A stretch of DNA of 64,000 nucleotides from contig OZ244960.1 in NCBI GenBank assembly GCA_965222605.1, forward strand, positions 928,001 through 992,000, read 5' to 3'. This document shows, piece by piece, positions 15,201 through 49,514 of this stretch. Origin of the DNA: Candidatus Latescibacterota bacterium. Lineage in GTDB: Bacteria; Latescibacterota; UBA2968. The position numbers and the translations under genes are program-made. How positions within the stretch are numbered: the stretch's first letter is position 1; the number at the start of each line of letters is the position of its first letter. Under the pieces are notes generated by a model. The model saw nothing but the letters and a program-made list of their open reading frames with translations, was not told where the DNA came from and made no database searches.

Positions 15201-16991
15201 ATTGTCAATAGTATCGCATTCAGCCCGGATGGCAACACGCTCGCCAGTGCTGGAAAATCTTTTCTTAGTGGTATCATCCATCTATGGGATGCGGACACGG
15301 GACAGCACATGAGAAAAATCGAAGCTTTCGGCGCAGCAGGCGGAATCTGGAGTGTCGCATTCAGCCCGGATGGGAACACCCTCGTCGGTTCCACTCAGAT
15401 TCTCTCACGAGGCCATAGCGGCGATCTTTATTTGTGGGATGCGGACACAGGCACAGAGCAACGTTTAGAAAAGTCCGAGAGCGGGGATATTTTCTCTTCA
15501 GCGCCTACCTATTATTATAGCGTCGCGTTTAGTCCAGATGGCAGCACGCTGGTCAGTGGCGGCGGAAAGTTTTTTGGGGGAGGCAATATCGATCTGTGGG
15601 ATGCGGACACAGGACAGCACAAGCAGAGGCTCACAGGGCATGCGTGGCCTGTGCGGAAGGTCGCATTTAGCCCGGATGGGAAGAGGTTCGCCAGTGGAGG
15701 TGGGGAAGAACTCCTTCTGTGGGATGCTACGGGACTGCTCTTGAACACGGTCACAGGACATTCGTGGATGGGCCGCAGCGTCGCATTCAGCGCGGATGGC
15801 ACAATCGCAAGTGGCAATTGGGGCGGCACAATCGATCTGTGGGATGCGAATACAGAACAGCACAAGAAGAGGCTTCCAGGGCATGCATCTGCAGTCCGGA
15901 ACGTCGCGTTCAGCCCGGATGGTAGCACGCTCGCAAGTGTGGCGGGAAAAATAATTCGTCTGTGGGATGCAGTCACGGGACAGCGCAAGATGAGCCTCCC
16001 CAATAGATCCTATGGACAAAGCCCTGGCTCTGGCATTGGCATCGGCATTGGTGGCTTCGGCTTCGGTGACACCAGCGGCGGTCTCACTGGCATTAGACTT
16101 GGAGGCATCACCATTGGCTTTGGCCTTGGCGGCGGTAGTGGCGTTAGTGATCCCTACGCAAATGACCCTTTTATTTATTCGGTCGCGTTCTCAAGAGATG
16201 GCAGTATGCTTGCGGCTGGGTGTGGTGGAAGAGAATTTCCTGGTTGTATTGATTTTCGAAACGCTACCACAGGAGAGTTACTGCACAGGATTACAGGGCT
16301 TGAGGCGGATGTCTGGAGCGTCGCATTCAGTCCAGATGGCACGCTGGCCAGTGGAAGTACAGACGGCATCATTCGTCTGTGGGATACGACCAGCGAACAG
16401 CCCTTAAACGCATTCGAAGGGCATACGTCGGCAGTCTGGAGCGTCGCGTTCAGCTCAGATGGGAAGACACTCGCCAGTGGGGATGCAGACGGCATCATTC
16501 GCCTGTGGAATGTCACTACTGGACAACTCAAGCAGACACTCGAAGGTCATACGGATGATGTCCGAAGCATTGCGTTTAGCCCGGATGACAACATACTCGT
16601 CAGTGGGAGTTTGGACCGCACCATTCGTCTGTGGGATACTACCACCGGACAACCGGGGCAAACGCTTGAGGGACATCTATCGGAAGTCTGGAGCGTTGCA
16701 TTTAGCCGAGATGGCAGCATACTCGCCAGTGTGAGTTTGGATGGCACGATTCTGCTGTGGGACATGTCGCCGTATATCACATCTCAACCTCCTGCTCCGC
16801 CTCGACCTCCGACTCCCGACTTCGATGGCGATGGGACTATTGGCTTTCCCGACTTTTTGTTATTTGCGGCACAGTTCGGATTAAGTCGAGGCGATGCGGG
16901 CTATGACGCGCGGTATGATCTGGATGGCGATGGCACCATCGGGTTTGGTGATTTTCTGATCTTTGCCAACGCCTTTGGTAAAGAAGGATGA
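12231..16991 (+). CDS. Secreted multi-propeller WD40 protein with two Big_1/invasin-like Ig domains and a C-terminal dockerin-like domain
   Basis: RBS AGGAGG and signal peptide. Many GH...VAFS.DG..LASGS.D.T.KLWD repeats. Two ISG(D/N)DQQGTPG..LPNPLIVEVRD domains. Ends in DFDGDGTIGFPDF...YDLDGDGTIGFGDF. Confidence 0.9.
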   Translation: MQKILLFNLILSFFFVQDSLAQTTLVGHRRDVTSVAFSSDGTILASGSEDDTIKLWDVATGRNIATLEGHTDYVTSVAFSHDGKLLASGSEDETVKLWDVATHTNTATLEGHTGEVLSVAFSHDGKTLASSGGYQDETVRLWDVATHTNTATLEGHTRGVLSVAFSHDGKLLASGSEDETVKLWDVATGRNTATFEEHTSDVASVAFSHDGTMLASGGARFDNTIKLWDVATRRNIATLRGHTSDVASVAFSPNGTTLASGGGKFDNTVKLWDVAGQYSFATFEHTDAVTSVAFSPDGTILASGSEDETVKLWDISESLVPRPFSLVIISGDDQQGTPGTALPNPLIVEVRDRDNNPLPDVQVTFTVTAGEGKLSGQFTVEHVTTNANGRAQRTLILGPGPGTHTFVGVSVLEGELLVTFNAVGTGTPDVLFLRNGLTEDTLVGHTSNVTSVAFSPHGTLLASGSDDGTVVLWDVATSTNTATLEDNIYGVDAMAFSHDGTTIATASIYSIKLWDVATGTNIATLEGKFFESVAFSPDGKTLASASWDGIKLWDIATRKTTLILEETPYGGVESVVFSPDGKTLATASDDGTIKLWDVATGNVFILKGHTDDVYSVAFSSDGTMLVSGSNDGTSKLWDVVRRTNTVTFEGHKDNVTSVGFSPDGATIVSGSEDGTVKLWDVATGTNIATLEGHTDEVLWVLSVAFSPHGTIVASGSSDNTVKLWDVAEAVQPQPAGLMIISGNDQQGTPGAALPNPLIVEVRDQYGNPLPGTQVTFTVTAGEGQFSGQLTVEHVTTDANGRAQGTLTLGPGPGTYTTVRVSAGQEFVIFTVGTPDTPRSRDGDYWTWHLPDGVTARLGKGWILDIAYSDDGARLAVGSGIGVWIYNALTGAEVDLLTEHTSVIRSVAFNPDGSTLAGGSWDGTIHLWDATTGQHLNTLTGHRSAVRSVAFNPDGSTLASGSQGGTIRLWDATTGQHLRVLTALDVFGNAEIVNSIAFSPDGNTLASAGKSFLSGIIHLWDADTGQHMRKIEAFGAAGGIWSVAFSPDGNTLVGSTQILSRGHSGDLYLWDADTGTEQRLEKSESGDIFSSAPTYYYSVAFSPDGSTLVSGGGKFFGGGNIDLWDADTGQHKQRLTGHAWPVRKVAFSPDGKRFASGGGEELLLWDATGLLLNTVTGHSWMGRSVAFSADGTIASGNWGGTIDLWDANTEQHKKRLPGHASAVRNVAFSPDGSTLASVAGKIIRLWDAVTGQRKMSLPNRSYGQSPGSGIGIGIGGFGFGDTSGGLTGIRLGGITIGFGLGGGSGVSDPYANDPFIYSVAFSRDGSMLAAGCGGREFPGCIDFRNATTGELLHRITGLEADVWSVAFSPDGTLASGSTDGIIRLWDTTSEQPLNAFEGHTSAVWSVAFSSDGKTLASGDADGIIRLWNVTTGQLKQTLEGHTDDVRSIAFSPDDNILVSGSLDRTIRLWDTTTGQPGQTLEGHLSEVWSVAFSRDGSILASVSLDGTILLWDMSPYITSQPPAPPRPPTPDFDGDGTIGFPDFLLFAAQFGLSRGDAGYDARYDLDGDGTIGFGDFLIFANAFGKEG

Positions 16992-17159
16992 TAGAGAATA
17001 TGCGCTATGATTTGCGTTCTCTATTTGGCAAAGTCGCAGAAGGAGTTACTTGATGTGTCCTCCTGTCCACAGTGCAGCAGAAGTATCCAACCCATCTAAC
17101 AGCGAGATGGTTATCTGTTGCTTAGTGCAGGAACCGGGCGAGGGCAGAGGAACAGACTC

Positions 17160-18503
17160 ATGAAAACGCCAGCTATGAATTATAAATTTCTCTTACTGAT
17201 TTTAGTCTTGGCGGCCTTCGCACAAGGTATCGGCTATGGGCAAGAACCTGTCTCCCCTGTGAATGAATCAGGGACGGATGCCACATTAAGCAGGCTGACG
17301 GCCAGCCCGGTGGACATTGTCGGCTTCGACAGCGATGTAACCGAATACCATGTCGGCGTTGCGAACACAGTAACACAGGTCTCCATAACGGCTACCGCCA
17401 CAGATGCAGGCGCAACCATCGAGATAGGTAAGAGTGAGACAGATAAGAACACCGCCGCCAGTGGTTCGGTGCAGGTGATTTTGCTGGATGAGGGTCGGAA
17501 CACCGTGTATGTATGGGTTACGTCCCAGAGCGGAACTATAAAGAAAATCTATACAATCACAGTGGGCAGGAGCGTCGATTCTGCGTACGGCTGGAAGGCC
17601 ATTGACGACTTCAACACGCTGCGTGCTGCTGGAAACCGAAGCATTGACGGTATCTGGTCGGACGGAACGACCATGTGGGTGGCGGACGAAAGCGGCGACG
17701 AGAAATTGTATGCCTATGACATGATATCCAAGGAGCATGTTCCGGAAAAAGACATCAATACACTGGATGCCGCCGATAACGACGCCCCGGACGGCATCTG
17801 GTCGGACGGAACGACCATGTATGTCGCGGACGACCCGTCCTTCTTCGAGAAGATTTATGCGTACGACATGGCGACCGGGGCCCGGGACCGCGACAAAGAC
17901 ATCAATGCGCTGGAAATTTCTGGAAACGACAACCCGGAAGGCATCTGGTCGGATGGAACGACCATGTGGGTGGCGGACATCTCTGACGAGAAATTGTATG
18001 CCTATGACATGACGTCTAAGGAGCGTGTGCCGGACAAGGACTTTAATACGCTGGATGCCGCCGGAAACGACGACCCGACGGGCATCTGGTCGGATGGAAC
18101 GACCATGTGGGTGGCGGACGACTGGGACGAGAAATTGTATGCCTATGACATGATGTCTAAAGAGCGTGTCCCGGACAAAGACTTCAATACACTGAAATCT
18201 GCTGGAAACGGTGGCCCGGAAGGCATCTGGTCGGATGGGACGACCATGTGGGTGGCGGACGACTGGGACGAAAAGATCTATGCCTACAACATGCCGTCCA
18301 ACGGAGGCACCACAGCGGGTGTGACCGACTTCAATGGCGACGGTCAAACCGATTTGGCTGACTTCTTACTGTTTGTCGAACAGTTCGGATTAAGTCGTGG
18401 CGATGCGGGGTATGATGCGCGGTATGATCTGGATGGCGATGGCAGCATCGGATTTGGTGATTTTCTGATCTTTGCCAACGCCTTTGGTCAGGAAGGGACA
18501 TAG
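17160..18503 (+). CDS. Secreted protein: cadherin-like beta sandwich, five GIWSDGTTMWVAD repeats, C-terminal dockerin-like domain
   Basis: ATG at 17160 after GAGGA (17175 is an alternative start). Hydrophobic signal, DATLSRL...YTITV sandwich, five ~47-aa repeats and a terminal EF-hand pair. Confidence 0.82.
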   Translation: MKTPAMNYKFLLLILVLAAFAQGIGYGQEPVSPVNESGTDATLSRLTASPVDIVGFDSDVTEYHVGVANTVTQVSITATATDAGATIEIGKSETDKNTAASGSVQVILLDEGRNTVYVWVTSQSGTIKKIYTITVGRSVDSAYGWKAIDDFNTLRAAGNRSIDGIWSDGTTMWVADESGDEKLYAYDMISKEHVPEKDINTLDAADNDAPDGIWSDGTTMYVADDPSFFEKIYAYDMATGARDRDKDINALEISGNDNPEGIWSDGTTMWVADISDEKLYAYDMTSKERVPDKDFNTLDAAGNDDPTGIWSDGTTMWVADDWDEKLYAYDMMSKERVPDKDFNTLKSAGNGGPEGIWSDGTTMWVADDWDEKIYAYNMPSNGGTTAGVTDFNGDGQTDLADFLLFVEQFGLSRGDAGYDARYDLDGDGSIGFGDFLIFANAFGQEGT

Positions 18504-18542
18504 AATTGACCTATCTCTGTATCCGCCTATTTATATTAATCA

Positions 18543-18691
18543 GATATAGAAATCTTGCATTAGGTTCTCGAAACTGGGTAATCGCGGCAGGGATGCCGCT
18601 CCCACAGTAAGCGAGTTGTAGGAGGGAAATCCTTTTCCCGACTCTGCGACAGCTTGAGCAGGCAACAGACCATGCAAAGTTAATTCTTATC
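18543..18691. repeat. MITE/REPIN-like element containing two oppositely oriented GT(A/G)G-type REP palindromes
   Basis: Imperfect terminal IR: GATATAGAAATCTTGCAT / ATGCAAAGTTAATTCTTATC. REPs: GTGGGAGCGGCATCCCTGCCGCGA (minus, 18582-18605) and GTAGGAGGGAAATCCTTTTCCCGA (plus, 18618-18641). Confidence 0.55.
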
Positions 18692-18692
18692 G

Positions 18693-19016
18693 ATCAGCTA
18701 TGCGTCGCCCCCGCTGGTCGATAGCGTGCATTTCTGCCTGCCGTTCGATTACGCGCAGTGGCAACGCGATCACCCCCGTGCTGCGTCGCGTGATCCGTTG
18801 AGCTCGATCCAGTCTCTGTCCGATCTGGGCTACATCGTCAATGTCGGCCAGGCAGACGCGTACACGCTACCCTCTCCTGCCGCTGCTAAATTGGCGATAG
18901 CATCTGAGCATCAGGTCCCGATTAACTGCATCATAATAGAACCCATCGGCGAGATTGATGAGTACAAGCCAATCGAGTTGAAACCCAGGCGCTTGAGGAT
19001 ACGTGAGGATCAATGA
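18693..19016 (+). pseudogene. Orphan remnant: C-terminal tail of an M8-like peptidase gene fused to a short unrelated 5' segment
   Basis: 18805-19016 is a close DNA copy of 11988-12199 (IQSLSDLGYIVNVGQADAYTLPSP...EDQ*). No HEXXH motif, signal peptide or RBS. Confidence 0.8.
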
Positions 19017-19097
19017 AATTCCAGTGCTGAGATACAATGCTAAATCTTATAGATCACCCTTAATAACTGCACCATTTACAATTTCAAGGAGACAGCA

Positions 19098-21119
19098 ATG
19101 AAAAACACAATTTTCAATCGAAAAGTCATTGTGTCGATTCTCGTCGTGATGCTGGCGATATGCGGCTTTCCAGGTATGAGCTATGGGTTCTTTGATGATC
19201 TTCTCGATATTTTCGTAGATATTGTCGAAGGCATTGGCAATGTCACCGTCGGGGTGGTCAACCTCGCCGTCGGGGTGACCGATCTCGCCGTTGGAGTTGC
19301 CGATCTCGCCGTCAGTCTCGCGCTCACACATGTCGGGCATACAGATTGTGTCTTGAGCACGGTCTTCAGCCCGGATGGAGCGACACTGGCCAGTGGCAGT
19401 TGCGACTTCACAGTTCTCTTGTGGGATCCCACTGGGCTAATCAGAGTCACCCTGCTGCATCAGTCTCCCGTCTGGAGCACAGCCTTCTGTCCCATCAATA
19501 ACTGTACGCTGGCCAGTGGGACCGAGAACGGCAACCTGCACTTGTGGTTCTCCGACACAGGACAACTCAAAACCACGCTCACAGGGCATACCGCCGCTGT
19601 CCTGAGCACGGTCTTTAGTCCTGTTGATCACAATGTGTTGGCCAGTGGGAGCGCAGATGGAACCATTCGTCTTTGGAATGCCGAAACCGGCGCGCACCAG
19701 CGAACACTTACCGGCCATGCGGACAGTGTCTCGAGTATTGCCTTCCGCCTCGACGGCAGCATGCTCGCCAGTGGGAGCGCAGATGGAACCATTCGTCTTT
19801 GGAATGCCGAAACCGGCGCGCACCAGCGAACACTCACCGGACATACAGGGACCGTCAGGAGCGTAACCTTCAGTATCGATGGCAGCATGCTCGCCAGCGG
19901 AAGTGCGGACGGCACGGTGCGCCTATGGAATCCCCTCGACGGAGAACACCTGACCACGCTCGATCACAAGTCTCCTGTCCTGAGCGTTGCCTTCAGTCCC
20001 GGTGACAGCCTGTTCGCCAGTGGCAGTGCAGATGGCACGGCGCGTTTGTGGGACCCCCTCACCTGGAAAGTCAAGGCCACGCTGGGGCATGAGTCTCCCG
20101 TCTGGAGCATCGCCTTCAGTCCCGATGGCAGCATGCTCGCCAGCGGGGCAGAGGACGGCAAGGTACGCCAGTGGGAACTCACGTCCATAGCCGTGTGTTG
20201 TGACCGGGACTCCGATAAAGATTTCAATATGCTGGATGCGGCGAGAAACGACCACCCTACAAACATCTGGTCGGATGGAACGACCATGTGGGTCGCGGAC
20301 AGATTTGACGATAAGTTATACGCATACAACCTGACCTCCAGAACCCGGGATGCAGCCAAAGACTTCAACGCCTTGCGTGCCGCCGGAAACCGTGGGCCTG
20401 AGGGTATCTGGTCGAACGGGACAACCATGTGGGTCGCGGACTCTTTCGACAAGAAAATTTATGCCTACGACATGAACTCCAGAGCACGGGATTCTGGCAA
20501 GGATTCCAATTCCCTGCGTGCCGCTGGAAACCGTCATCCAGGGGGTATCTGGTCGGATGGAACGACCATGTGGGTATCAGACATCTTTGACCATAAGATA
20601 TATGCCTACAACATGAACTCCAGAGCACGGGATTCTGACAAGGATTTCAATTCCCTGCGTGCTGCTGGAAACCGTCATCCACGGGGGATCTGGTCGGATG
20701 GAACGACCATGTGGGTCGCGGACAGATTTGACGATAAGTTATACGCATACAACCTGACCTCCAGAACCCGGGATGCAGCCAAAGACTTCTACTCCCTGCG
20801 CGGCAACGGAAATACCTGGCCAGAGGGCATCTGGTCGGACGGGACAACCATGTGGGTAGGGGACAAATTTGATAGGAAGCTATACGCCTACGACATGCCG
20901 TCCACCGGGTCCACGACCGAAACACCGGTAGCGCAAGCACCGACCGATTTCAATGGCGATGGCATTGTTGATATTCCCGATTTTTTGCTATTTGTAGATC
21001 ATTTCGGGTTACGTCAAGGCGATGCGGGGTATGATGCGCAGTATGATCTGGATGGCGATGGCAGCATTGGTATTAGCGATTTTCTGATCTTTGTGGATGC
21101 CTTTGGTAAAGAAGGATGA
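19098..21119 (+). CDS. Secreted WD40 propeller, five GIWSDG repeats and C-terminal dockerin-like domain
   Basis: RBS AAGGAG and signal peptide. About 7 WD40 repeats, 5 (G/N)IWS(D/N)GTTMWV repeats, and DFNGDGIVDIPDF...YDLDGDGSIGISDF. Confidence 0.88.
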   Translation: MKNTIFNRKVIVSILVVMLAICGFPGMSYGFFDDLLDIFVDIVEGIGNVTVGVVNLAVGVTDLAVGVADLAVSLALTHVGHTDCVLSTVFSPDGATLASGSCDFTVLLWDPTGLIRVTLLHQSPVWSTAFCPINNCTLASGTENGNLHLWFSDTGQLKTTLTGHTAAVLSTVFSPVDHNVLASGSADGTIRLWNAETGAHQRTLTGHADSVSSIAFRLDGSMLASGSADGTIRLWNAETGAHQRTLTGHTGTVRSVTFSIDGSMLASGSADGTVRLWNPLDGEHLTTLDHKSPVLSVAFSPGDSLFASGSADGTARLWDPLTWKVKATLGHESPVWSIAFSPDGSMLASGAEDGKVRQWELTSIAVCCDRDSDKDFNMLDAARNDHPTNIWSDGTTMWVADRFDDKLYAYNLTSRTRDAAKDFNALRAAGNRGPEGIWSNGTTMWVADSFDKKIYAYDMNSRARDSGKDSNSLRAAGNRHPGGIWSDGTTMWVSDIFDHKIYAYNMNSRARDSDKDFNSLRAAGNRHPRGIWSDGTTMWVADRFDDKLYAYNLTSRTRDAAKDFYSLRGNGNTWPEGIWSDGTTMWVGDKFDRKLYAYDMPSTGSTTETPVAQAPTDFNGDGIVDIPDFLLFVDHFGLRQGDAGYDAQYDLDGDGSIGISDFLIFVDAFGKEG

Positions 21120-40296: not shown

Positions 40297-41808
40297 ATGA
40301 AACGAATTTTAATATGCTGGATAGGCAACACAGACTTGCAAGCCTCTGAAGGACAAGATGTAGGTGTGGGGCCTATCGCCCAGGCACTGGACACACGCGA
40401 ATTTGATGAAGTCTTTTTTATCACAGATTATAAAGAAGCTCGCGTAAAGCCTTACACCAACTGGATACGAGAAAGAACCCCAACGCCACACCAACTATTT
40501 TATCGACAACTTTCAAGCCCCACCCACTTTGGAGAAATTTACGAGATTGCCGCAAGCATCTGCCAAGAAGCTCTGGACCAATATGGCAATCAAACAGAAC
40601 TGACTTTTCACCTCAGCCCCGGCACGCCAGCAATGGCCGCGGTATGGATCATTCTGGCGAAAACGCGCTTTCCCGCTGAATTGATCGAGTCCTCAAGGGC
40701 GCATGGCGTTCAAACCGCCTCTGTTCCCTTCGATATTTCTGCAGAATTTTTACCTACCCTCCTGCAAAAACCCGATGCAGAACTCCGCTCATTGAGCGAA
40801 GAAAAACCCACTGAATCAGCAAATTTTGAAAACATAATATACAGGAGCCAGGCCATAGCGCGCGTGGTCGAAAAAGCGCGGCGTGCTGCCGTGCGAGATA
40901 TTCCCGTCTTATTTGAAGGTGAGTCCGGCACGGGAAAAGAACTCTTTGCACGCGCCATTCACCAACGCAGCCTGCGAAAGGGGGAATTTATTCCCGTAAA
41001 TTGCGGCGCGATTCATCCCAACCTTGTAGAATCTGAACTGTTTGGGCACAAAAAAGGTGCATTCTCAAATGCCCATGCTGATCGCAAAGGCCACTTTGAA
41101 GAGGCAAATGGCGGTACCATCTTTTTGGATGAAATTGGCGAATTGTCCAAAGATATACAGGTGAAATTATTGCGCGTCTTACAGGAAGGAGAGGTCGTGC
41201 GACTCGGTGAATCCAAACCCAGAAAAGTAGATGTACGCATTGTTGCGGCAACAAATCGAAATCTCATCGAGGAAGTTAGTGAAGGACGGTTCCGCGAAGA
41301 CCTGTTCTATCGGCTTGCAGTGGCCTATCTCAAATTGCCCCCATTGCGCGAACGAGAGGGAGATATGGGTTTGTTGATTAACCATTCGCTCGAACTGATC
41401 AACCGGGAAAATGAAATGCAACCCGGCTACAAACATAAAAAAATTTCCATCGGCGCAAGAAATCTTATTCTGAATCACCATTGGCCTGGCAATATACGCG
41501 AGTTGCAAAACACGCTCAGACGCGCGATGGTGTGGACAGACGAAGAAACCCTTACGCGACAAGACATTGAAGAAGCCCTCTTACCCGCGTTTGGGAAACG
41601 AGACGAAGATATCCTGAATCGCCCCTTTGACGCAGATTTTAGCCTGCCCGATCTGATTGATGAAGTTGCAAAACACTATATTTCTCGCGCACTGAAAGAA
41701 TCCAAAACAAAAACAGAAGCCGCAGAACTCGTGGGCTTACCCAGTTACCAGACCCTCACCAACTGGGCAAAAAAGCACGGTGTAGAAATTGATCTAAACA
41801 GAAAATAG
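40297..41808 (+). CDS. Sigma54-dependent enhancer-binding protein with RtcR-like/CARF-like N-terminal sensor
   Basis: N-terminal ILICWIGNTD...PTHFGEIY...FHLSPGTPAM with no receiver domain. GESGTGKE, GAFSNA, FLDEIGE, RFREDLFYRL, WPGNIREL. C-terminal HTH. Confidence 0.88.
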   Translation: MKRILICWIGNTDLQASEGQDVGVGPIAQALDTREFDEVFFITDYKEARVKPYTNWIRERTPTPHQLFYRQLSSPTHFGEIYEIAASICQEALDQYGNQTELTFHLSPGTPAMAAVWIILAKTRFPAELIESSRAHGVQTASVPFDISAEFLPTLLQKPDAELRSLSEEKPTESANFENIIYRSQAIARVVEKARRAAVRDIPVLFEGESGTGKELFARAIHQRSLRKGEFIPVNCGAIHPNLVESELFGHKKGAFSNAHADRKGHFEEANGGTIFLDEIGELSKDIQVKLLRVLQEGEVVRLGESKPRKVDVRIVAATNRNLIEEVSEGRFREDLFYRLAVAYLKLPPLREREGDMGLLINHSLELINRENEMQPGYKHKKISIGARNLILNHHWPGNIRELQNTLRRAMVWTDEETLTRQDIEEALLPAFGKRDEDILNRPFDADFSLPDLIDEVAKHYISRALKESKTKTEAAELVGLPSYQTLTNWAKKHGVEIDLNRK

Positions 41809-41824
41809 AAAAAATTTAAAAAAA

Positions 41825-41864
41825 ATATCAAATTTTAGAGTACATTGGCACGAAATATGCTTAA
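41825..41864 (+). promoter_or_regulatory. Sigma54 (-24/-12) promoter 1 with upstream IHF-like site
   Basis: TGGCACGAAATATGCT at 41846-41861 (GG-N10-GC). TATCAAATTTTAG and an A-tract lie upstream. Confidence 0.8.
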
Positions 41865-42049
41865 ACAATGAGCGTGACAACAACGTGGACTCCCGCCACC
41901 TGAAGAAATTTCTTGACAAAGCTGCTGTATTAGTAAAAAAATTAGTATCCTGACCCATTCCAAATCGGAGCGCGTTGGATATTCCAAAAGTTTGTCAACC
42001 TCAAGTGTTTCAGACAAACCTGAACGTTTTTTTCAAATTGTGAGAAATT

Positions 42050-44155
42050 ATGGCCAATTTAGATATTAAAAACCTGGTGAAGGAACTGTTTCCTAGCAGC
42101 GTGAAGGACCCGGGGTATCAAAGGTATTTGGAAGGCTTCATTGAAGAAGGATTAAAAACTGAAAATTCTTATAAATTTCAACATCTTACATCTATTGTCA
42201 TTGAAAATTTCAAGTGCATCGGCGATGCCGTAACTATTCCCATTCGTCCCATCACATTGTTATTTGGAAAAAATAGTTCGGGTAAATCAACAGTGTTACA
42301 GGCACTACGTTATGGCTACGAAATGTGGCAAGGTAAATTAGCCAGCCATATATCAATGAGCGGTGGCTTTAATATTGACTTTAGTGATTTTCCTTCCCTG
42401 GTACATGGCCATGATCTGGACAAAAAAATTCGAATTCGTTTCGAATATACCTTTGATTTCGATACCCAATATCCTACTTATGAATTTAGCGAAGTGGTAA
42501 CAGGTTGGAAAGATGGACAAGGCAATATCGTGTCATGGTTATGGGGAATGAGCAAGAATAATGAGGAACTGATTCGTTGTTCCTTTGATAGCTTAGAAGC
42601 CCACACACCTGATACGATATTTGGCTCAAATGGTGAGGAATTGATCTGTTTGAAAGAAAAAAAAGGGTTCCCAAAGCTTTCTCCAGAAATATATGTGAAT
42701 ACTAATAATATTCATAAGGATTCTATAGATTTCCAGTTAAATATAATTAGGTATAAATTGCTGCATCAGCAAGAACTTACAGAATCCTCTAGCGATATTC
42801 AACATTTGGGCCCATTCCGTGAAGTGCCCCAAACGCTTGATAACTCATGGGAAAAAGGAATTGGAGCCTGGAATACTCTCGCGCGTGATCCGGAATTGCT
42901 AAAAGAAACAAATCGCTATATGAGAGATATTTTGAAACTTGGATACACCATCAGTGATATCACACTTGATAGTCAAGAAAAGTCAAATATCACGCTTGAT
43001 ATGAATAGTGAAATCATGGAAAAGTTAAAAAAAATTTGCAATTCTGAAGACATAAAAGTTGATGAATTAAAAAAACAGGTTTATGATCCTCTTGTGCTAT
43101 TATCTCGCCAACCTGTGATTAAACTTCATGACGAAAACGAGAATATAGAAGTTGGTCTCTCAGATATTGGTGTTGGTATCGCCCAAATTATTCCCGTTGT
43201 GGTGGGGACATTAGACGATAGCCACGGAATTTTTTTAGTTGAACAGCCAGAGCTTCACATTCATCCTGCTGTTCAAGTGGCTTTGGGCGATGTATTCATT
43301 GACAGTATAAAAACTAAGCAACTGTTTTTAGATGATTCTCAATTCATACAAGAATGGGCTCATTCTTTTCTAGCCGGAGACGAGACCTATAAGAAATTTC
43401 GCTCCAAGTTTATCTCCAAGCTAGAAAACAGTCCGGACTTCCTTGAAAAGAAAAAAAATATCAATAACCCTGCTTCTTTTTATAACATTTCCTCTAAGAT
43501 TGGCGGCCTCATAATAGACAGCATAAAAATTGGGCAAGAGTGTTTTGATTTTTCTCTATCTTTGCAAGAGGCTTCAGATAAATTTCTCTCCAAAATGGAA
43601 AATAGCTTTGATTTTTCTCTATCTTTGCAAGAGGATTCAGATAAACTTCTCTCCAAGATAGAAAACAGCAAGGAAGACCTACTTGATATTAAAGGACGGA
43701 CATTTAGAAAGGAAGATCTACTTGAAAGCGTCAAAAATATCAATGATCCTGCCAATGATCCTGCTTTTTATTCTAAGATTATTGACCTCATAAAAGACAG
43801 TCATCAGGATATTCTAATAATTGCCGAAGGGTTAAACAAAAAAGTGAGAGAATTAGGCAAAAAGCATAGAAAAGATCTCTTAAGCATGGGTAAAAATAGT
43901 AATCGCACTCTACTCATTGAAACGCATTCAGAGCACCTGTTACTGAGGATTATGAGGCGGATGCGTGAGACGTTTGAAGACAGGATTGTAGAAAATCACT
44001 TCCCCGTAACCCCCGATGATATCGCAGTGCTATTCGTCGAAAGGCATGATTCGCAAACAATCATACGGGAAATGCCTGTTAATGAACGTGGAGAATTGGT
44101 AAAAGCCTGGCCGGGCGGTTTCTTTGAGGAAGATATAGAAGAGGTATTTGCTTAA
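42050..44155 (+). CDS. ABC-type (AAA_15/AAA_21, DUF3696-like) ATPase with a ~190-aa insertion
   Basis: IENFKCI, GKNSSGKS, DIGVGIAQ, LVEQPELHIHP, IETHSEH, and C-terminal WPGGFF. Confidence 0.88.
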   Translation: MANLDIKNLVKELFPSSVKDPGYQRYLEGFIEEGLKTENSYKFQHLTSIVIENFKCIGDAVTIPIRPITLLFGKNSSGKSTVLQALRYGYEMWQGKLASHISMSGGFNIDFSDFPSLVHGHDLDKKIRIRFEYTFDFDTQYPTYEFSEVVTGWKDGQGNIVSWLWGMSKNNEELIRCSFDSLEAHTPDTIFGSNGEELICLKEKKGFPKLSPEIYVNTNNIHKDSIDFQLNIIRYKLLHQQELTESSSDIQHLGPFREVPQTLDNSWEKGIGAWNTLARDPELLKETNRYMRDILKLGYTISDITLDSQEKSNITLDMNSEIMEKLKKICNSEDIKVDELKKQVYDPLVLLSRQPVIKLHDENENIEVGLSDIGVGIAQIIPVVVGTLDDSHGIFLVEQPELHIHPAVQVALGDVFIDSIKTKQLFLDDSQFIQEWAHSFLAGDETYKKFRSKFISKLENSPDFLEKKKNINNPASFYNISSKIGGLIIDSIKIGQECFDFSLSLQEASDKFLSKMENSFDFSLSLQEDSDKLLSKIENSKEDLLDIKGRTFRKEDLLESVKNINDPANDPAFYSKIIDLIKDSHQDILIIAEGLNKKVRELGKKHRKDLLSMGKNSNRTLLIETHSEHLLLRIMRRMRETFEDRIVENHFPVTPDDIAVLFVERHDSQTIIREMPVNERGELVKAWPGGFFEEDIEEVFA

Positions 44156-44270
44156 TGGCTTTATTTTCTGAGTATGCTGTAACACCTGATGTATTTAATG
44201 AGAGTTGTTATGATTCGCCAGCATTATGTGACGTATATTTTAGACAATTGCTGGAAGTTTTTTTTACTGA

Positions 44271-45196
44271 GAAGCTGTTTTAAAACTATTGTGAGTGAAG
44301 AAAAGGGTTGAAAAAGCGTATTCATCTGTCCAAATTTAGGTTAGCAAATCACCCTAAAAAGAAAGGACAAAGATGAATACGCAAAGGCAATATCCGACAA
44401 ATGTCACCCAAGCGCAATGGCAACTGCTGATCCCCTTGCTGCCCAAACGCAAATGGCGAAAAGGAGGTCCCGGACGCCCTCCTGCCAATTTGCGCCAAGT
44501 GTTCAATGGCATCCTGTATCTGACGAAGACCGGCAGCCAATGGCGCATGCTACCCCATACCTTCGGCTGCTGGCAGACCGTGTATGGCTATTTCAATAAA
44601 TGGCGCAAGCAAGGCATCTTTGAGCAGGTGCAACAGGCACTCACGCGGCGAGAAAGAAAACGGCAGGGACGTAAGCCTACCGCATCAGCAGGCTGCATTG
44701 ACAGCCAAAGTGTCAAGACAGCAACACAAGGAAAATCAAAAGGTTATGATGCTGGCAAAAAGGTCAATGGACGCAAACGCCATCTTCTCGTTGATACCCT
44801 CGGACTCGTCATCAGCACCTATGTCTCGCCTGCTGATCTCCAAGACCGTGATGGCTTAAAGAAGGTGCTCAATCAGTATTTTGACACGGGAGAGACACGC
44901 TTACGCAAGCTATGGGTTGATGGCGGCTATCGAGGTGAAGACCTCAAGAAATGGGTCGCTGCTAAGAAGCAGACGCATAAGATTGATCTTGAGGTTGTCA
45001 CCCCAAAAGGCAAAGGCTTTCAACTCGTCAAACGCCGGTGGGTCGTCGAGCGCACCTTTGCTTGGTTATTTAATTTTCGCCGACTATCAAAGGATTATGA
45101 AGACTTGACCGACAGTAGTGAAGCCTTTATTTACATCGTTATGATTTACCTCTTAATCAACAGACTCGCTTAAGCGAGGGGTTTTAAAACAGCTTC
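44271..45196 (+). mobile_element. IS5-family element (IS1031-like), 926 bp
   Basis: Perfect 16-bp TIR GAAGCTGTTTTAAAAC and 3-bp TSD TGA (44268-70 and 45197-99). Confidence 0.95.
44373..45173 (+). CDS. IS5-family DDE transposase
   Basis: IDSQSVKT, GYDAGKKVNGRKRHLLVDTLG, VDGGY, RWVVERTFAW. Confidence 0.96.
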   Translation: MNTQRQYPTNVTQAQWQLLIPLLPKRKWRKGGPGRPPANLRQVFNGILYLTKTGSQWRMLPHTFGCWQTVYGYFNKWRKQGIFEQVQQALTRRERKRQGRKPTASAGCIDSQSVKTATQGKSKGYDAGKKVNGRKRHLLVDTLGLVISTYVSPADLQDRDGLKKVLNQYFDTGETRLRKLWVDGGYRGEDLKKWVAAKKQTHKIDLEVVTPKGKGFQLVKRRWVVERTFAWLFNFRRLSKDYEDLTDSSEAFIYIVMIYLLINRLA

Positions 45197-46329
45197 TGAG
45201 GGTCTCGTTCGAAATCTTCGCAATGGCGAATGGCAAGCGTTCTTTTCAACCCATGCAAGACCCTGGCACTCCCGTATAAAGCATATTTTGAAAAATTTGG
45301 CTGACGCAGGTCGTTTAGTACCAAGTGATCCAGCATTAAGTCATACACCTCAGACTGATCATGAATGGTGCAACGAGGCACTGGCTTCGCATGACACCTC
45401 ACCTTTGAATGGCATTATAGTAAGTGATGCCATTCGAAGTACCTATCGCAGAAATCAGTTGGTTGAAAGTGTAAATAGACTATCTCAATCTACCTGCGCG
45501 TGGTGGGAACCCACAAATAGCTCGCTTCGGTTAAAGCGCACTATCTGTCAGTATAAAAAAGCTCTTAAGCTGATTCTTAGGCATGCAAAATCCATTATGT
45601 TTATAGACCCCTATATTTATCCAGCACAAAGCAACTATGCTGATTTTGTACAATTGATTAAAGCAGCGAGTAATAGACCGCCACAATCACCACGACCAAT
45701 TGTTGAGATACATAGCAAAATTCGTAACATCTCTGGAAAAAATAGGGAAGATACTCGTCAGATTATGGAAAATACTTTTCGAAACGGGTTTGGCCCAGTT
45801 CTTTCGCAGTCAAACTTAAAAGCAGAAGTTTTTATATGGGACGATTTTCACGATCGTTATCTGATTAGCAATTTAGGCGGAATACTGGTGCCCCATGGAT
45901 TCGACACATCAACCAGTTCTAACCTGACAACATGGTCACGGCTTGGACGGTTAGATCGAGATGATGTACAGCGCGAATTTGCTCGCGAGAGTAATAAACA
46001 CAAACTGCAGTTTAATTTTACGATACCGTGAAATTGGGATTTATCGTGAAACCGGTTTACTACACGGTGAGTGTCGAGAGATACTCACCGTTTTTGTTTG
46101 TGTATGAGAGCCAAAATATGGAGGCTTCAGAAATAACGGTCCCACGGCTGTCAGATCAATCCGGAGAGAACGGCCATTCAAAAGAATAAAAAAATTTACT
46201 CTAATACAAGAAATTTTACTCACAATGCCATCCTATCCTGATTAGCAAAGTTGCCAGACACGACTTTTATCGCATTCACGGCACGGAAATTGGCACGAAA
46301 TAAACAAAAAATGAAAAATTTTTATCAAA

Positions 46330-46369
46330 AGATCAAATTTTAGATCGAATTGGCACGAAATATGCTTAA
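46330..46369 (+). promoter_or_regulatory. Sigma54 (-24/-12) promoter 2 with upstream IHF-like site
   Basis: TGGCACGAAATATGCTTAA at 46351-46369 is identical to promoter 1. GATCAAATTTTAG sits at the same spacing. Confidence 0.8.
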
Positions 46370-46493
46370 GTAATTGGCACGACTACAGTGGAGATGTTCG
46401 GAAGTGGATCAAGACCGATGCCCACAGGTAGAAACGTCAAATTATCAGCAGAAATTTGTGTGTTCTGATGGACACAACGCAGGGAGTATTGTA

Positions 46494-46805
46494 ATGAGTA
46501 TTTTTCCGAGAGGGCGACCCAGCCGACAGGCACCGCCCAATAGACCTGGGATATACCGGTTTATATGCAAGCTGACTGGAAGAGTTGATTATATCGGCGA
46601 AGCTGTAAATATAGCACGCAGGATAATTGAGCATCTTCAATCAACCAAACCCGTATCGCGTGATACCCACTATGTCGAATGGCAGGCGGCAGATGGCAGA
46701 AGCACATCAAGAACCCGCCGAGAATATGAGCGAACTAAAATTAACAAACACAAACCACGACTGAACAAGAGAGGCGGGGGTGGAGGCCGAAGGGCCAGAC
46801 GATGA
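46494..46805 (+). CDS. Small stand-alone GIY-YIG nuclease (103 aa)
   Basis: PGIYRF...DYIGEAVNIARRIIEH...E...KPRLN. RBS AGGGAG. Confidence 0.85.
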   Translation: MSIFPRGRPSRQAPPNRPGIYRFICKLTGRVDYIGEAVNIARRIIEHLQSTKPVSRDTHYVEWQAADGRSTSRTRREYERTKINKHKPRLNKRGGGGGRRARR

Positions 46806-46978
46806 TTTGCAGCACTACTGGTGCCCCGGCGCTTTAAAATATAAAAGGAGCACCGAGAGGAGGTGATGTTCTATGGGTACGCTGATAAAATTGTGTTTGC
46901 CATACCTCATTCCGTTAGCTATAGATGTGATCGGAAACTGGTCGCGCATCAAGCGGTAGAAGGGGCGATGGCAGTGTC

Positions 46979-47004
46979 AGAGACGGGGAATCTTCCCCGT
47001 CTCT
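46979..47004 (+). terminator. Perfect 12-bp hairpin (terminator or processing stem)
   Basis: AGAGACGGGGAA-TC-TTCCCCGTCTCT; no clear U-tract on the plus strand. Confidence 0.45.
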
Positions 47005-47136
47005 TGAAAAAATTCCTTGACAACTCGGCGTGTTGTTTGAAGAATTGAGTGGTATGTTGACCTGTTCTACAGAAACCAATTCATTATCAAACTCAAGGGT
47101 CCGTATTTGAACTCTTTTATCAAATGGTAAGAAATC

Positions 47137-48516
47137 ATGGATATTCCCAATACTGAAATCATTAAGATATTATCTCAACAAGGTCGTGGCCGTATTACAT
47201 CTATCACCATTGAAAACTTCAAGTGCATTGGCGATGCCGTGACCATTCCCATTCGCCCTATCACCTTGTTATTTGGCAAAAACAGCGCGGGCAAATCAAC
47301 AGTGTTGCATGCACTGCGCTATTGGTTCGAAATTTGGAATGAGACTTGGTATAAATTGACCGAGCAAAACACTCCCGAGCGGAGTGCTATAGAAATGAGT
47401 GGAGGCTATACTATTGACCTTACAAATTTCCCTTCCCTGGTACATCGCCATAATTTGGATCGGAAAATTCGCATTCGCATCACCTATGCTCCCAATGTCA
47501 CAGATAAGCAAAATCAAAGTTATCATCTTCTATGGAATGAAGTAGTAACGAGTTGGAAAGAAGAAGACACCCATGTCGAGTCAGTTTTATTGGGATGTGT
47601 CATAAATGGCGAAGAAATGTGTTTCATCATTTCAGGGGAACCGTCCAACGATGCGGTGGTTAATCCGAATGGCAGGGTATTGATTCCTAAAAAGCTGGAT
47701 GCATCCGGTCAGTCTTCTGGCATGGCTTTAGCCATCGGTACAGCTTTCGGCGCAGCTTTTCCGATACTCGGCATAATAGCAGGTTTTGAAGGGTTGAGTA
47801 GTCGGCAAAAACCTCAAACGCCGGATGCTATTCAACATTTGGGGCCATTCCGAGAATTGCCTCCTCCCCATTATGACAAACTCCAAACGTCCGATGAATT
47901 GCAAAATAAATTGCGGCGATGGGAAAAGGGATTAGGAGCTTGGGATACCCTCGCACGAGACCCCAAAGTGATCAAAAAAACAAACCACTATATGCAAGAT
48001 GTTTTGAAACTTGGATACAGCATTAATCATTGGAAACGCAATTCCACTAATCTTGAGCAGTGGCCTTGCCTTCATGATGAAAACAATGATATAGATGTTC
48101 ATCCTTCAGATGTTGGTGTTGGTATTGCCCAGATCATTCCAGTTGTAGTGGGTGCGTTAGACGACGACCAGAACTCTATAATTTTTGCGGTTGAACAACC
48201 AGAACTCCATGTTCACCCTGCCGTTCAAGTGGCTTTGGGCGATGTGTTTATTGACGGCATAAAAAATGGCAATCGCACTATGCTCATCGAAACACATTCT
48301 GAGCACTTGCTGTTGCGATTGCTGCGACGTGTGCGTGAGACAACAGAAGGAGAACAAACAGATTACAAATTGACACCCGACGATCTATCTGTGGTCTATG
48401 TCCGACCAACGCCAGCAAGAGTTAAGTTCACCGCAATCAGTGTAACGGATGACGGCGACTTCAATGTACCTTGGCCGGAAGGCTTCTTCGACGAGCGAGT
48501 GAAGGAGCTTTTCTAA
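47137..48516 (+). CDS. ABC-type (AAA_15/AAA_21, DUF3696-like) ATPase, paralog of 42050
   Basis: GKNSAGKS, DVGVGIAQ, AVEQPELHVHP, IETHSEH, WPEGFFDER. Confidence 0.9.
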   Translation: MDIPNTEIIKILSQQGRGRITSITIENFKCIGDAVTIPIRPITLLFGKNSAGKSTVLHALRYWFEIWNETWYKLTEQNTPERSAIEMSGGYTIDLTNFPSLVHRHNLDRKIRIRITYAPNVTDKQNQSYHLLWNEVVTSWKEEDTHVESVLLGCVINGEEMCFIISGEPSNDAVVNPNGRVLIPKKLDASGQSSGMALAIGTAFGAAFPILGIIAGFEGLSSRQKPQTPDAIQHLGPFRELPPPHYDKLQTSDELQNKLRRWEKGLGAWDTLARDPKVIKKTNHYMQDVLKLGYSINHWKRNSTNLEQWPCLHDENNDIDVHPSDVGVGIAQIIPVVVGALDDDQNSIIFAVEQPELHVHPAVQVALGDVFIDGIKNGNRTMLIETHSEHLLLRLLRRVRETTEGEQTDYKLTPDDLSVVYVRPTPARVKFTAISVTDDGDFNVPWPEGFFDERVKELF

Positions 48517-48518
48517 GG

Positions 48519-49514
48519 ATGATCTGTGAATATGCATTGGAACCAGAACTTGTCGCAACTTGGCACGACCGTGAACGCTTCCGTTATTTTAGCGAACGAT
48601 TCGGCTTTGACTATGATGGCCGCGCAACAGGCCGTGTGATGGCTCAATATCCCAGTAATTGGAAAAAACGGGTTTGGGACGCATTTGCTACAGACTCTGG
48701 ACAACCACCTGCTGAATCCTTTGCTAAGCGAAGACGGGTCGAAATTTTGCTGGAACAGTTGGGGAGAATTCATGTCCGCCGCTCCGGCAGCGTGTGGAAC
48801 GATCAATACACTTGGCTGGAAAATGCTGAAGAAGAGAATAAGCGTCGTCCATTTCATGCGATCTTGGCATACGACAACCCCCACAACAACTCTCGGGTCA
48901 TGCTTGAGGACGATGTGCTGAAGATACCTCCACCTCCAAATTGGCTCGCGCCTCTTGAAACTCCGGTACTTAGAACTGCGACTTCGATGGCAACCCGCCT
49001 CGAGCCAATGCTGCGCTGTGCAACGCGCATCCTTTTCATTGACCCACATTTTAGTGCGTCGGAACTGAGATTCCGAAATCCTTTGGAAGAGTTCCTAAAA
49101 ATCATTTGTGACGGTAGCCGTAAGGTCACACTCGAATACCACACCATGCACAACGATCAAAAACCGGCTTGGAACCTTTTTTTAAGAAATTGCCAAACAA
49201 AGCTCCCGCGTCTCATTCCCCGTGGTTTCACACTCACAGTCCGCCGTTGGGAAGAACGAGATGTTGGAGAGGAACTTCATGACCGCTATATCCTCACCAA
49301 CATCGGTGGCGTAGCGATTCCTAGAGGTCTCGACGAAAAAGAAGGTCTCGACGAAAGAGACCGAGGTACTATTGATATCTTACGTTTAAGCTTCGAAACT
49401 TGGCAGCAACGGTTAGAAGAGTACGGTTACTACAATTCTGAACCTATTTTTGATCCAGAGAGATCCGCTTTCGATATGGAAGGAGAGGTATGTATTGCGG
49501 GCACGAAGGTATAG
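48519..49514 (+). CDS. ATPase-coupled IDPH/HDR (PLD-like) protein, distant paralog of the 44155 gene
   Basis: Starts 2 nt after the ATPase stop. MICEYALEPE, ILFIDPHF, LHDRYILTNIGG. Confidence 0.8.
   Translation: MICEYALEPELVATWHDRERFRYFSERFGFDYDGRATGRVMAQYPSNWKKRVWDAFATDSGQPPAESFAKRRRVEILLEQLGRIHVRRSGSVWNDQYTWLENAEEENKRRPFHAILAYDNPHNNSRVMLEDDVLKIPPPPNWLAPLETPVLRTATSMATRLEPMLRCATRILFIDPHFSASELRFRNPLEEFLKIICDGSRKVTLEYHTMHNDQKPAWNLFLRNCQTKLPRLIPRGFTLTVRRWEERDVGEELHDRYILTNIGGVAIPRGLDEKEGLDERDRGTIDILRLSFETWQQRLEEYGYYNSEPIFDPERSAFDMEGEVCIAGTKV

Follow-up and report, generated by a model that had tools for sequence, protein, structure and literature searches.

Menshen-like ATPase-effector modules beside an RtcR-like CARF-sigma54 activator in an AT-richer island of a Candidatus Latescibacterota genome

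Genes and promoters of the island

We analysed a 64,000-nucleotide stretch of the genome of a Candidatus Latescibacterota bacterium (contig OZ244960.1, positions 928,001 to 992,000; hereafter the window, to which coordinates refer unless stated otherwise), focusing on an island at 40297-49514 that carries the gene for a CARF/sigma54 activator followed by two pairs of ATPase and effector genes, and that an earlier note, made from the sequence alone, had put forward as a candidate inducible defence system. The host genome is a single 6.34-Mb contig with a completeness of 98.7%. As claimed in that note, the island is AT-richer than its surroundings and lies between housekeeping genes: the GC content is 0.36-0.48 over 41500-48500 as compared to 0.51-0.56 in the flanks, where we identified genes for a sulfatase, a DUF1015 protein, a FAD-dependent reductase, serine hydroxymethyltransferase (SHMT), a polysaccharide flippase and PriA. 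The island is organised on the + strand in the order activator, promoter P1, ATPase1, partner1, which is split by an insertion sequence (IS), promoter P2, GIY-YIG gene, ATPase2 and partner2. The order proposed before thus holds for the activator, the promoters, the ATPases, the GIY-YIG gene and partner2, but the IS had been omitted from the list of parts.

The first gene (40297..41808, + strand) encodes a 503-residue, RtcR-like activator composed of a CARF domain, an AAA+ sigma54-interaction domain and a helix-turn-helix (HTH) domain, as identified by Pfam, PADLOC and AlphaFold2 (AF2) with Foldseek. Pfam places Sigma54_activat at residues 180-345 (1.4e-67), together with AAA_lid_14, and the PADLOC model PDLC01995 (RtcR_PspF2, CARF_AAA_HTH) matches residues 2-497 over profile positions 1-481 of 481 (1.1e-196), with weaker PADLOC matches to other CARF models (CARF4, Csx1/Csm6). 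The N-terminal domain was modelled for residues 1-178 from an alignment of 25 homologues (A5), giving a pLDDT of 83, and the best Foldseek match of this model is Csm6 (6tug, 1.3e-5), with Can2, Card1, Cam1 and Cad1 also being found; these best matches are CARF domains that bind cyclic oligoadenylates (cOA). The earlier description as a CARF-like sigma54 activator is borne out by the domain, profile and fold matches. WxGxTD and HLSPGTPAM are invariant across the activator family in the alignment of the CARF region, and the protein has a Walker A motif GESGTGKE, a Walker B motif FLDEI, an arginine finger region and the sequence FREDLFYRL. On the NCBIfam RtcR equivalog NF038308 it scores 331 bits at a cut-off of 650; judged by its sequence, it is RtcR-like and not RtcR. 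This CARF activator is the only one in the host genome, which contains rpoN. At three related loci (loci are denoted by L and a number) the activator homologue matches as two overlapping tblastn pieces, L004:6039-7464, L006:11801-13328 (= L109) and L007:5500-7013 (= L107), suggesting frameshifts in these long-read metagenome-assembled genomes, either real pseudogenes or assembly errors.

Promoter P1 (41846..41860, + strand) is a sigma54-type site, TGGCAC-N5-ATGC, located 38 nt past the activator stop codon, and a site is present at the same position in relatives. Promoter P2 (46351..46365, + strand) precedes the GIY-YIG gene. Both comprise the identical 15-mer TGGCACGAAATATGC, each copy being embedded in a duplicated A/T-rich block of ~95 nt. 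We scanned 79 loci related to the ATPase-partner pair (1,363,785 bases) with the strict pattern TGGCA[CT]N5T[TA]GC and obtained 38 matches on the + strand, i.e. the gene strand, and 0 on the - strand. In 24/79 loci a sigma54 site is found up to 300 nt upstream of an ATPase start or up to 200 nt after the activator stop, and close relatives carry the ATGC variant at equivalent places, with none on the opposite strand. The two sigma54 promoters postulated before are thus recovered, with strand-specific counterparts in related loci.

Upstream of the P2-type non-coding promoters a block of ~70 nt is shared by the window, L011 and L002. In the window this conserved non-coding block (46222..46300, + strand; …TGATTAGC.AAG.TGCCAGACAC…TTCACGG…GGAAATTGGCA…) is, from its conservation, a candidate activator-binding site. 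A dyad CCCAGTT-N14-AACTGGG at 41744-41771 was also considered as an activator-binding site and rejected, as it lies in the 3' coding end of the activator gene and is inseparable from coding constraint. A 95-nt segment around P2 (46289-46383) contains three copies of the word TTGGCACGA, at 46290, 46350 and 46374, with the full -24/-12 spacing being present only in the middle copy.

The leaders of ATPase1 and ATPase2 align with each other and are conserved. They contain the sigma70-like sequences TTGACA-N18-AAAAAT (41913..41942, + strand; 10/12 matches) and TTGACA-N17-AAGAAT (47017..47045, + strand), respectively, both of which are consensus matches only. A hairpin resembling an intrinsic terminator, with a 12-bp stem and a T run (46064..46091, + strand; sequence scan), follows partner1. 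Given this strong hairpin, the genes likely form two separate transcription units, one from P1 with ATPase1 and partner1 and one from P2 with the GIY-YIG gene, ATPase2 and partner2. The metatranscriptome X17 covers just the multi-copy IS and a 34-nt piece (42039-42072) and has no bearing on expression of the island.

The GIY-YIG gene (46494..46805, + strand, the likely start being 46494) encodes a small nuclease-domain protein of 103 residues with a basic tail (Pfam 2.5e-5, 24.9 bits, cut-off 22.6). It is 70-85% identical from residue 1 in L005, L006 and L011. Among the 79 loci it accompanies the pair in four (L002, L005, L006, L011), and it occurs in 4/20 Latescibacterota regions centred on the activator (L097, L098, L103, L104), a set that overlaps the 79 loci and is not independent of them. 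The gene is present as reported, but it is confined to close relatives, which limits its earlier designation as a part of the system. In L002 (= L104) the GIY-YIG gene is split by ~1.3 kb into 2304-2456 and 3798-3974; this would be another island insertion, in a different gene from that in the window.

A loose sigma54 scan of the window gave regularly spaced, near-identical matches at ~4700-9400 (- strand) and ~12300-20200 (+ strand). Upstream of the island, copies of TGCCACCCTGATTGC are mostly spaced by multiples of 345 nt and those of TGGGAC....CTTGC by ~129 nt, which suggests that large genes there contain long arrays of repeated coding units.

ATPases, effector partners and the insertion in module 1

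ATPase1 (42050..44155, + strand, 701 residues) is an NsnB-like ABC ATPase with a DUF3696 tail and a low-complexity insert of ~190 residues, and ATPase2 (47137..48516, + strand, 459 residues) is an NsnB-like ABC ATPase with a DUF3696-like tail. In Pfam, ATPase1 matches AAA_15 with 4.6e-19 and DUF3696 with 25.7 bits, above the cut-off of 22, and ATPase2 matches AAA_15 with 1.5e-23 and DUF3696 with 21.4 bits, just below it. PADLOC identifies PDC-M55A (8.3e-43) and NsnB (2.7e-36) for ATPase1 as well as PDC-M55A (7e-44) and NsnB (9.3e-42, profile positions 2-339 of 345) for ATPase2, so that the AAA_15 type assigned to both is confirmed. The two share 46% identity over the core. In an alignment of 29 ATPases the Walker A GKS, R239, G327/G329 (GxG), Q354-P355-E356 (EQPE) and E385-T-H-S-E (ETHSEH) are invariant. 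The insert of ATPase1 has no counterpart in ATPase2 and most relatives; it includes a 63-bp tandem repeat (43544-43669; two copies, 92% match) that encodes the duplicated sequence FDFSLSLQE.SDK.LSK.ENS.

In both pairs the genes are tightly joined. The stop codon of ATPase1 and the start codon of partner1 overlap in TAATG at 44153-44157; in the second pair the TAA ends at 48516, with AAGGAG upstream, and the ATG is at 48519. The translational coupling claimed for both partners is therefore seen at both junctions, but partner1 is not an intact gene, as the IS splits it after codon 39. Alignment to homologues delimits an N-piece (44155..44270, + strand) that reads MALFSEYAVTPDVF... for 39 codons from the ATG at 44155 and is 90-97% identical to residues 1-39 of intact homologues, the frame then entering the IS and reaching a stop codon at 44281-44283. 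The C-piece (45201..46031, + strand, 276 codons) contains the rest of the PIN-like domain and the PLD (phospholipase D) domain with FIDPY and HDRYLISNLGG; it is 79-84% identical to L011, L013, L020 and L002 and resumes exactly where the match of the N-piece ends. An open reading frame (ORF) of 247 residues on the + strand (45288-46031) lies inside it.

The IS (44271..45196, + strand) measures 926 bp, has 16-bp inverted repeats, GAAGCTGTTTTAAAAC, and belongs to the IS5 family. Its transposase of 266 residues (44373-45173, + strand) matches NCBIfam transpos_IS5_3 (3.9e-72) and DDE_Tnp_1. The ends and the target duplication were defined by comparison of seven genomic copies, giving a 3-bp duplication TGA (44268-44270 and 45197-45199) that is of the TNA type across copies. 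The genome contains ten full copies, four of which are 100% identical. L011, L013, L020 and L002 harbour an intact, contiguous partner1 gene of 316 residues. In addition, contigs of the public sequencing runs X3 and X9, which come from different studies, join 44266/7 to 45196/7 without the IS, the gap of exactly 929 bases corresponding to the IS plus one copy of the duplication, and in the best-matching run X1 the contigs break at the IS ends. From these comparisons the IS inserted recently and its presence is polymorphic, which leaves module 1 without an intact effector gene in this genome. Of the two tandem effector modules described before, module 2 is intact and module 1 is inactivated. 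A stretch of ~1.1 kb separates the ATPase and partner matches in L107:3899-5002 and may be another insertion between coupled genes.

Partner2 (48519..49514, + strand) has 331 residues. Its AF2 model (pLDDT 86.5, pTM 0.85) consists of two domains, which, with Foldseek and the family alignment A1, are delimited as a PIN-like N-terminal domain (1-140) and a PLD domain of the MIT_C type (145-326). Residues 145-326 adopt a PLD-superfamily fold in the model, the top Foldseek match being MIT_C of MITD1 (2ymb/4a5z, 8.6e-5), and VIA-align yields Z scores of 10.1 for SauUSI, 9.9 for MITD1, 9.2 for NucT, 8.5 for Nuc, 8.1 for BfiI and 7.8-7.9 for Zucchini. Comparison of residues 1-140 with PIN domains gives Z scores of 5-6.5, a level at which the tool warns of common arrangements, and the PIN-like nature of the modelled N-terminal domain is suggestive. 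D175 follows the second strand (170-174) and H254-(D/N)-R256 precedes the fifth strand (256-260), both being invariant in 33 sequences. Over the family E8 and P9 (YALEPE), H113, D175-P176 (IDP), E206, H208, H254, R256, Y257, T260 and G263-G264 are invariant. The predicted PLD fold and the HDR motif agree with the earlier assignment, and so do EYAxxP, IDP(Y/H) and HDRY(L/I)xxNxGG, which we found in both partners. Partner1-type proteins and partner2 share 23% identity over the PLD domain, and an hhalign comparison of the two families gives a probability of 97.2% and an E of 4.5e-11 over 248 columns, covering both domains.

A word-indexed search with the partner2 family resulted in 417 matches; among the 120 listed none carries a Pfam domain, and "hypothetical protein" is the sole informative name. 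An exhaustive profile search recovered 2,832 representative clusters (defined at 50% identity) at E 1e-3 and 1,054 at 1e-30. Neither MIT_C (PF16565) nor PLDc of Pfam matches partner2 at E 10, and one look-alike cluster of partner2 in the Atlas carries MIT_C in 13% of its members, which we take as a lead only. A TetR_C_7 match to the partners at E 0.15 was dismissed as noise.

Relation to Menshen and other known systems

The island pair resembles NsnB and NsnC of Menshen, a system described by Li et al. 2025 (PMC12065111). The pair shares with Menshen an AAA_15 ABC ATPase with a DUF3696 tail and an effector gene immediately downstream. In NsnB, SGG is reportedly replaced by GxG and the Q-loop Gln by Arg (PMC12065111), and the invariant GxG and R239 of the island ATPases fit these peculiarities. 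Some NsnC proteins possess a PB-PLD1 domain, which has an acidic residue after beta-2 and HDR before beta-5 and is closest to MIT_C, and the N-terminal half of these proteins is an inactive-PIN-like domain (inPIN) (PMC12065111). Going by its model, partner2 has the same two-domain architecture as these inPIN + PB-PLD1 proteins and the same D...HDR signature. Polymorphic effectors, several versions per genome and frequent linkage to restriction-modification (R-M) are further shared features. The statement of the earlier note that the pair was not recognised as a named system is not supported, since the architecture of NsnB plus an NsnC variant is published (PMC12065111) and RtcR-led superoperons are in print as well (PMC11090510).

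There are clear differences. The pair is arranged in tandem arrays of 1-3 modules under a CARF-sigma54 activator, and the island ATPases score 124-142 bits on the NsnB model, as compared to 343 bits for the canonical NsnB of the same genome. The latter belongs to a canonical Menshen locus at genome positions 6161076-6164555 (L083, L125; PADLOC: NsnA 3.3e-144, NsnB 5.9e-103, NsnC 2.1e-60), showing that the modules without NsnA coexist with a complete Menshen. Five more NsnB/PDC-M55A-like ATPase genes are located at genome positions 1226828-1231695, 805237-807113, 125616-127492, 3604213-3606070 and 1010495-1012351; one of them lies ~2 kb downstream of a second NsnA-like gene and most precede ORFs of 144-175 residues. 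The host genome is unusually rich in ATPase-effector pairs of the NsnB/PDC-M55A class. A maximum-likelihood tree of 57 ATPases contains a branch with an SH-aLRT of 97 that separates the 51 encoded ahead of a PLD-type partner, both window ATPases among them, from six NsnB-like paralogues of this genome, canonical NsnB included; this is a quick, midpoint-rooted tree with two long outgroup branches and with outgroups taken solely from this genome.

NsnA served as the seed of the published Menshen census (PMC12065111), which is, by design, blind to pairs lacking it. A term search of the same paper gave no mention of NsnA-less Menshen forms, and the literature searched describes neither an NsnB/NsnC pair that lacks NsnA nor such a pair under a CARF activator. 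As NsnA, a defining component, is absent, we class the pair as working in the manner of the NsnB-NsnC core but leave it outside Menshen in its defined form.

Comparison of the ATPases with those of related loci revealed an exchange of parts. The last ~50 residues of ATPase1 are 98-100% identical to those of the module-1 ATPases of L011, L013 and L002, which have partner1-type effectors, at an identity of 22-50% in the bodies. Conversely, the ATPase preceding a partner2-type gene in L002 is 50-88% identical to ATPase1 in the body and 30% in the tail. Judged from these identities, the ATPases are mosaics whose C-terminal tail travels with the partner type, a pattern that fits an interface between ATPase and effector as evolutionary evidence. 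It also fits a published AlphaFold 3 prediction in which two DUF3696 tails clamp the N-domain of NsnC (PMC12065111). Our own complex prediction for ATPase2 and partner2 (alignments A4 and A1), run without controls, scored 0.00 and weighs neither way on binding.

The activator has the same CARF / AAA+ sigma54 / HTH architecture as RtcR and adjoins the sigma54 promoter that it presumably serves. It differs from RtcR in falling below the equivalog cut-off, in residing in a genome without rtcB and in having nuclease modules as cargo. Defence superoperons led by RtcR homologues and containing CoCoNuT, type I R-M and Druantia III were described by Bell et al. 2024 (PMC11090510). These superoperons have in common with the loci studied here the RtcR-like CARF activator at the 5' end of co-directional defence genes and, in many loci, a type I R-M system between the activator and the terminal effector system; the latter, however, is an NsnB/NsnC-like pair here and not a McrBC-type CoCoNuT with HEPN. 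The part of PMC11090510 drawn on contains no mention of an NsnB/NsnC-like pair. PARIS (AriA/AriB), Septu (PtuA/PtuB), Gabija, AbiL and PDC-M55 likewise combine an AAA_15-type ABC ATPase with a nuclease effector, but the effector is of the PLD/MIT_C type here and not Toprim, HNH or DUF4276. PDC-M55 itself was rejected as an identity, since the A component matches (7e-44) and the B component (315 positions) has no match in the island; as anticipated before, there is no full PADLOC match for the pair. The modelled fold of partner2 residues 145-326 is similar to those of MITD1 MIT_C, Nuc, NucT, BfiI, Zucchini and the N-domain of SauUSI (Z 8-10). As in the single-domain PLD nucleases, each chain of partner2 has just one H-x-basic-x4-D/N motif, implying that two chains dimerise to form an active site, and partner2 differs from these nucleases in having HxR instead of HxK, in its fusion to a PIN-like domain and in its coupling to an ATPase.

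Linkage, function and competing explanations

The ATPase gene is directly upstream of the partner gene in 73/79 related loci, and in 39/49 pairs with a whole ATPase ORF resolved the stop and start codons overlap or are at most 2 nt apart. A homologue of the CARF activator is encoded within 10 kb in 34/79 loci, or in 33/63 when only loci whose upstream sequence spans 8 kb or more are counted, and in eight further loci it is cut off at the 10-kb edge of the locus. These loci belong to Latescibacterota, Binatia, Thermodesulfobacteriota, Myxococcota, Acidobacteriota and Accumulibacter. The immediate upstream neighbours of 64 pairs comprise HsdS (at least 19), the activator (at least 15), another AAA_15 protein (at least 5) and an OLD Toprim protein (at least 3), with GmrSD_N/DUF262 being absent from the 25 families listed of 33. 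Downstream neighbours are mixed (PhyH at least 6, UvrD helicase at least 5, few nuclease families, otherwise housekeeping genes), with Mrr and McrC-like genes in some loci, and the partner usually ends the unit. These tallies use a crude pick of the longest ORF, so that some entries are probably spurious ORFs and the counts are lower bounds. In L021, L055 and L071 the activator is 8-10 kb upstream and the gap is filled by HsdR, HsdM and HsdS, which precede the ATPase and the partner; the type I R-M genes found in the same operons in other loci agree with the defence context that had been expected for the homologues. The activator is present in 34/168 genomes of the phylum, and its distribution within the genus is patchy (10/20 other genomes). 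Of the 20 sampled Latescibacterota activator loci, 14 have 1-3 ATPase-partner modules directly downstream and one has them upstream. Two of the 20 carry R-M-like genes, namely L112 with type I R-M genes and no ATPase-partner pair within ~15 kb, and L111 with an HsdM-like match only.

On the basis of these results we favour, with a probability of about 65%, the interpretation that the island is of the defence type and holds Menshen-like two-gene effector modules under an RtcR-like CARF-sigma54 switch. Each module would correspond to Menshen's transducer-effector core minus NsnA, its ParB-DUF262 sensor, and would be present in two diverged tandem copies of which the first is inactivated by the IS and the second, with the GIY-YIG gene ahead of it, is intact. 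The mechanism could then be as follows. A small nucleic-acid-derived ligand arising from infection or RNA damage would bind to the CARF domain, the AAA+ ring of the activator would assemble and open the sigma54 promoters, and complexes of ATPase and effector would accumulate, the ATPase oligomer holding the effector via its C-terminal tail. Upon a trigger, ATP binding or hydrolysis would license or release the effector, which might then cut nucleic acid. The ligand, the induction, the binding of the effector by the ATPase, the nuclease activity and its substrate, and the protection against phage are what we infer here, as the earlier note did for a nucleotide or RNA-damage signal. In the simplest view, sensing at the level of transcription would take the place of the missing protein sensor NsnA or add to it. 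A bolder version, which we regard as doubtful though by no means far-fetched, holds that in this lineage, whose genome has neither Cas10 nor RtcAB, NsnA has been replaced by a CARF enhancer-binding protein that senses a nucleotide or RNA-end signal born of infection and, through sigma54, switches on arrays of interchangeable ATPase-nuclease modules and, elsewhere, type I R-M operons.

Several observations weigh against the favoured interpretation. No NsnA (ParB-DUF262) gene is found beside the pair, either in the window or at those related loci that were examined; as to the island, the absence of a DUF262 partner had been stated before and is confirmed, all five DUF262 genes of the genome being more than 230 kb away. 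The partners have no significant match to the PADLOC NsnC model: partner2 matches no model of Pfam, NCBIfam or PADLOC even at E 10, and the C-piece of partner1 matches PDLC03880 weakly (E 0.008-0.01), so that the link between the partners and NsnC rests on fold, motif and gene order and not on sequence. In 45/79 loci there is no CARF match within 10 kb. The sigma54-contact loop of the activator reads GAFSNA and not GAFTGA, the latter being present at this position in 16/34 activator-type ORFs of related loci. Neither RtcB nor Cas10 of the Cmr2 or Csm1 type was found in the host genome, so that both known sources of CARF ligands or partners are missing. PLD-type nucleases would not be expected to leave RNA with the cyclic-phosphate ends bound by RtcR, and a simple self-amplifying loop is thus not evident. 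The conserved leaders of both ATPase genes hold the sigma70-like sites that score best in the 10-kb region, and the ATPases may be expressed at a basal level independently of the activator. Finally, at three loci in another order of the phylum the activator precedes no nuclease modules but genes without a defence-like appearance, such as those for a HAD hydrolase, an enolase-superfamily protein (MR_MLE) and a GH3-family adenylating enzyme. These are L113:2205-5760, L116:2726-5728 and probably L115, where a small-molecule pathway may be under the same type of switch.

The pair might instead be an accessory or back-up arm of type I R-M operons, similar to PrrC or the Rlo genes, with the activator regulating R-M or defence superoperons and the window representing a remnant that lost or never had R-M. 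This explanation overlaps with ours and differs in what the module guards and in its trigger. The frequent HsdS neighbours, the operon order in L021, L055 and L071 and the R-M-like genes behind the activator in L112 and L111 speak for it, as do the RtcR homologues that head superoperons of type I R-M and CoCoNuT (PMC11090510) and the linkage of ~28% of Menshen operons to BREX, to R-M systems or to methylases (PMC12065111). The modules, however, directly follow the activator without R-M in the window and in the 14 Latescibacterota activator loci, the activator itself is the upstream neighbour of at least 15 of the 64 pairs, and our ORF list and Pfam scan revealed no R-M genes inside the island, rendering an R-M arm rather unlikely.

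We consider it less likely still that the modules are autonomous and constitutively expressed from sigma70 promoters of their own, as in PARIS or Septu, with the activator merely boosting them or regulating something else, in which case inducibility would not be central to the system. The position of the sigma70-like sites in both ATPase leaders, the many loci without a nearby CARF match, the GAFSNA variant and the metabolic-looking genes behind members of the activator family are in line with such autonomy. Against it, sigma70-like sites are no commoner than in shuffled sequence (15 versus 16.7), the sigma54 sites at the module heads are conserved and strand-specific, the block around P2 is a promoter duplication preceded by a conserved element, and eight further loci have an activator that is cut off at the 10-kb edge. 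The least probable alternative, to which we give very little weight, places the island outside immunity, as a stress or nucleic-acid-repair regulon like RtcR-RtcBA or as a selfish, toxin-antitoxin-like addiction cassette. RNA repair is what the closest characterised relative of the activator, RtcR, controls (PMC7790460), the island is AT-rich and carries an IS, and an IS in the effector gene could be tolerated or even selected if the effector is toxic. This stands against a genome without RtcB, the activator's low score on the RtcR equivalog, ATPases of the defence-typical AAA_15/NsnB kind, the repeated occurrence of the pair within R-M operons and an island whose ORF list and Pfam matches include neither a ligase or cyclase for repair nor a small gene of the antitoxin type.

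All of the parts are already in print, i.e. the CARF-sigma54 regulator, an ATPase of the Menshen type, an effector of the PB-PLD1 type and superoperons led by RtcR homologues (PMC11090510, PMC12065111). What the literature searched does not contain is their combination, i.e. a widespread NsnA-less two-gene module, often in tandem with swapped tails, that is found with sigma54 promoters and a CARF activator in genomes without type III CRISPR and Rtc. The partner family, with its 2,832 clusters, has no Pfam, NCBIfam or PADLOC model and is missed by current defence finders. If the NsnB/NsnC-like pair works without NsnA, the Menshen core would be separable from its sensor and would provide a simpler two-gene system for studies of the mechanism, and the mosaic make-up of the ATPases suggests that the DUF3696 tail carries a testable specificity code. 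The tight linkage to CARF-sigma54 activators, seen across a wide range of lineages in genomes that have neither type III CRISPR nor Rtc, makes it tractable to ask what non-CRISPR CARF domains sense, and it bears on whether some bacterial defences are transcriptionally induced rather than constitutively armed. Should the replacement of NsnA by the CARF sensor prove true, bacterial immunity would include a dedicated inducible "alarm regulon" in which the ATPase tail is a swappable adaptor that chooses the effector.

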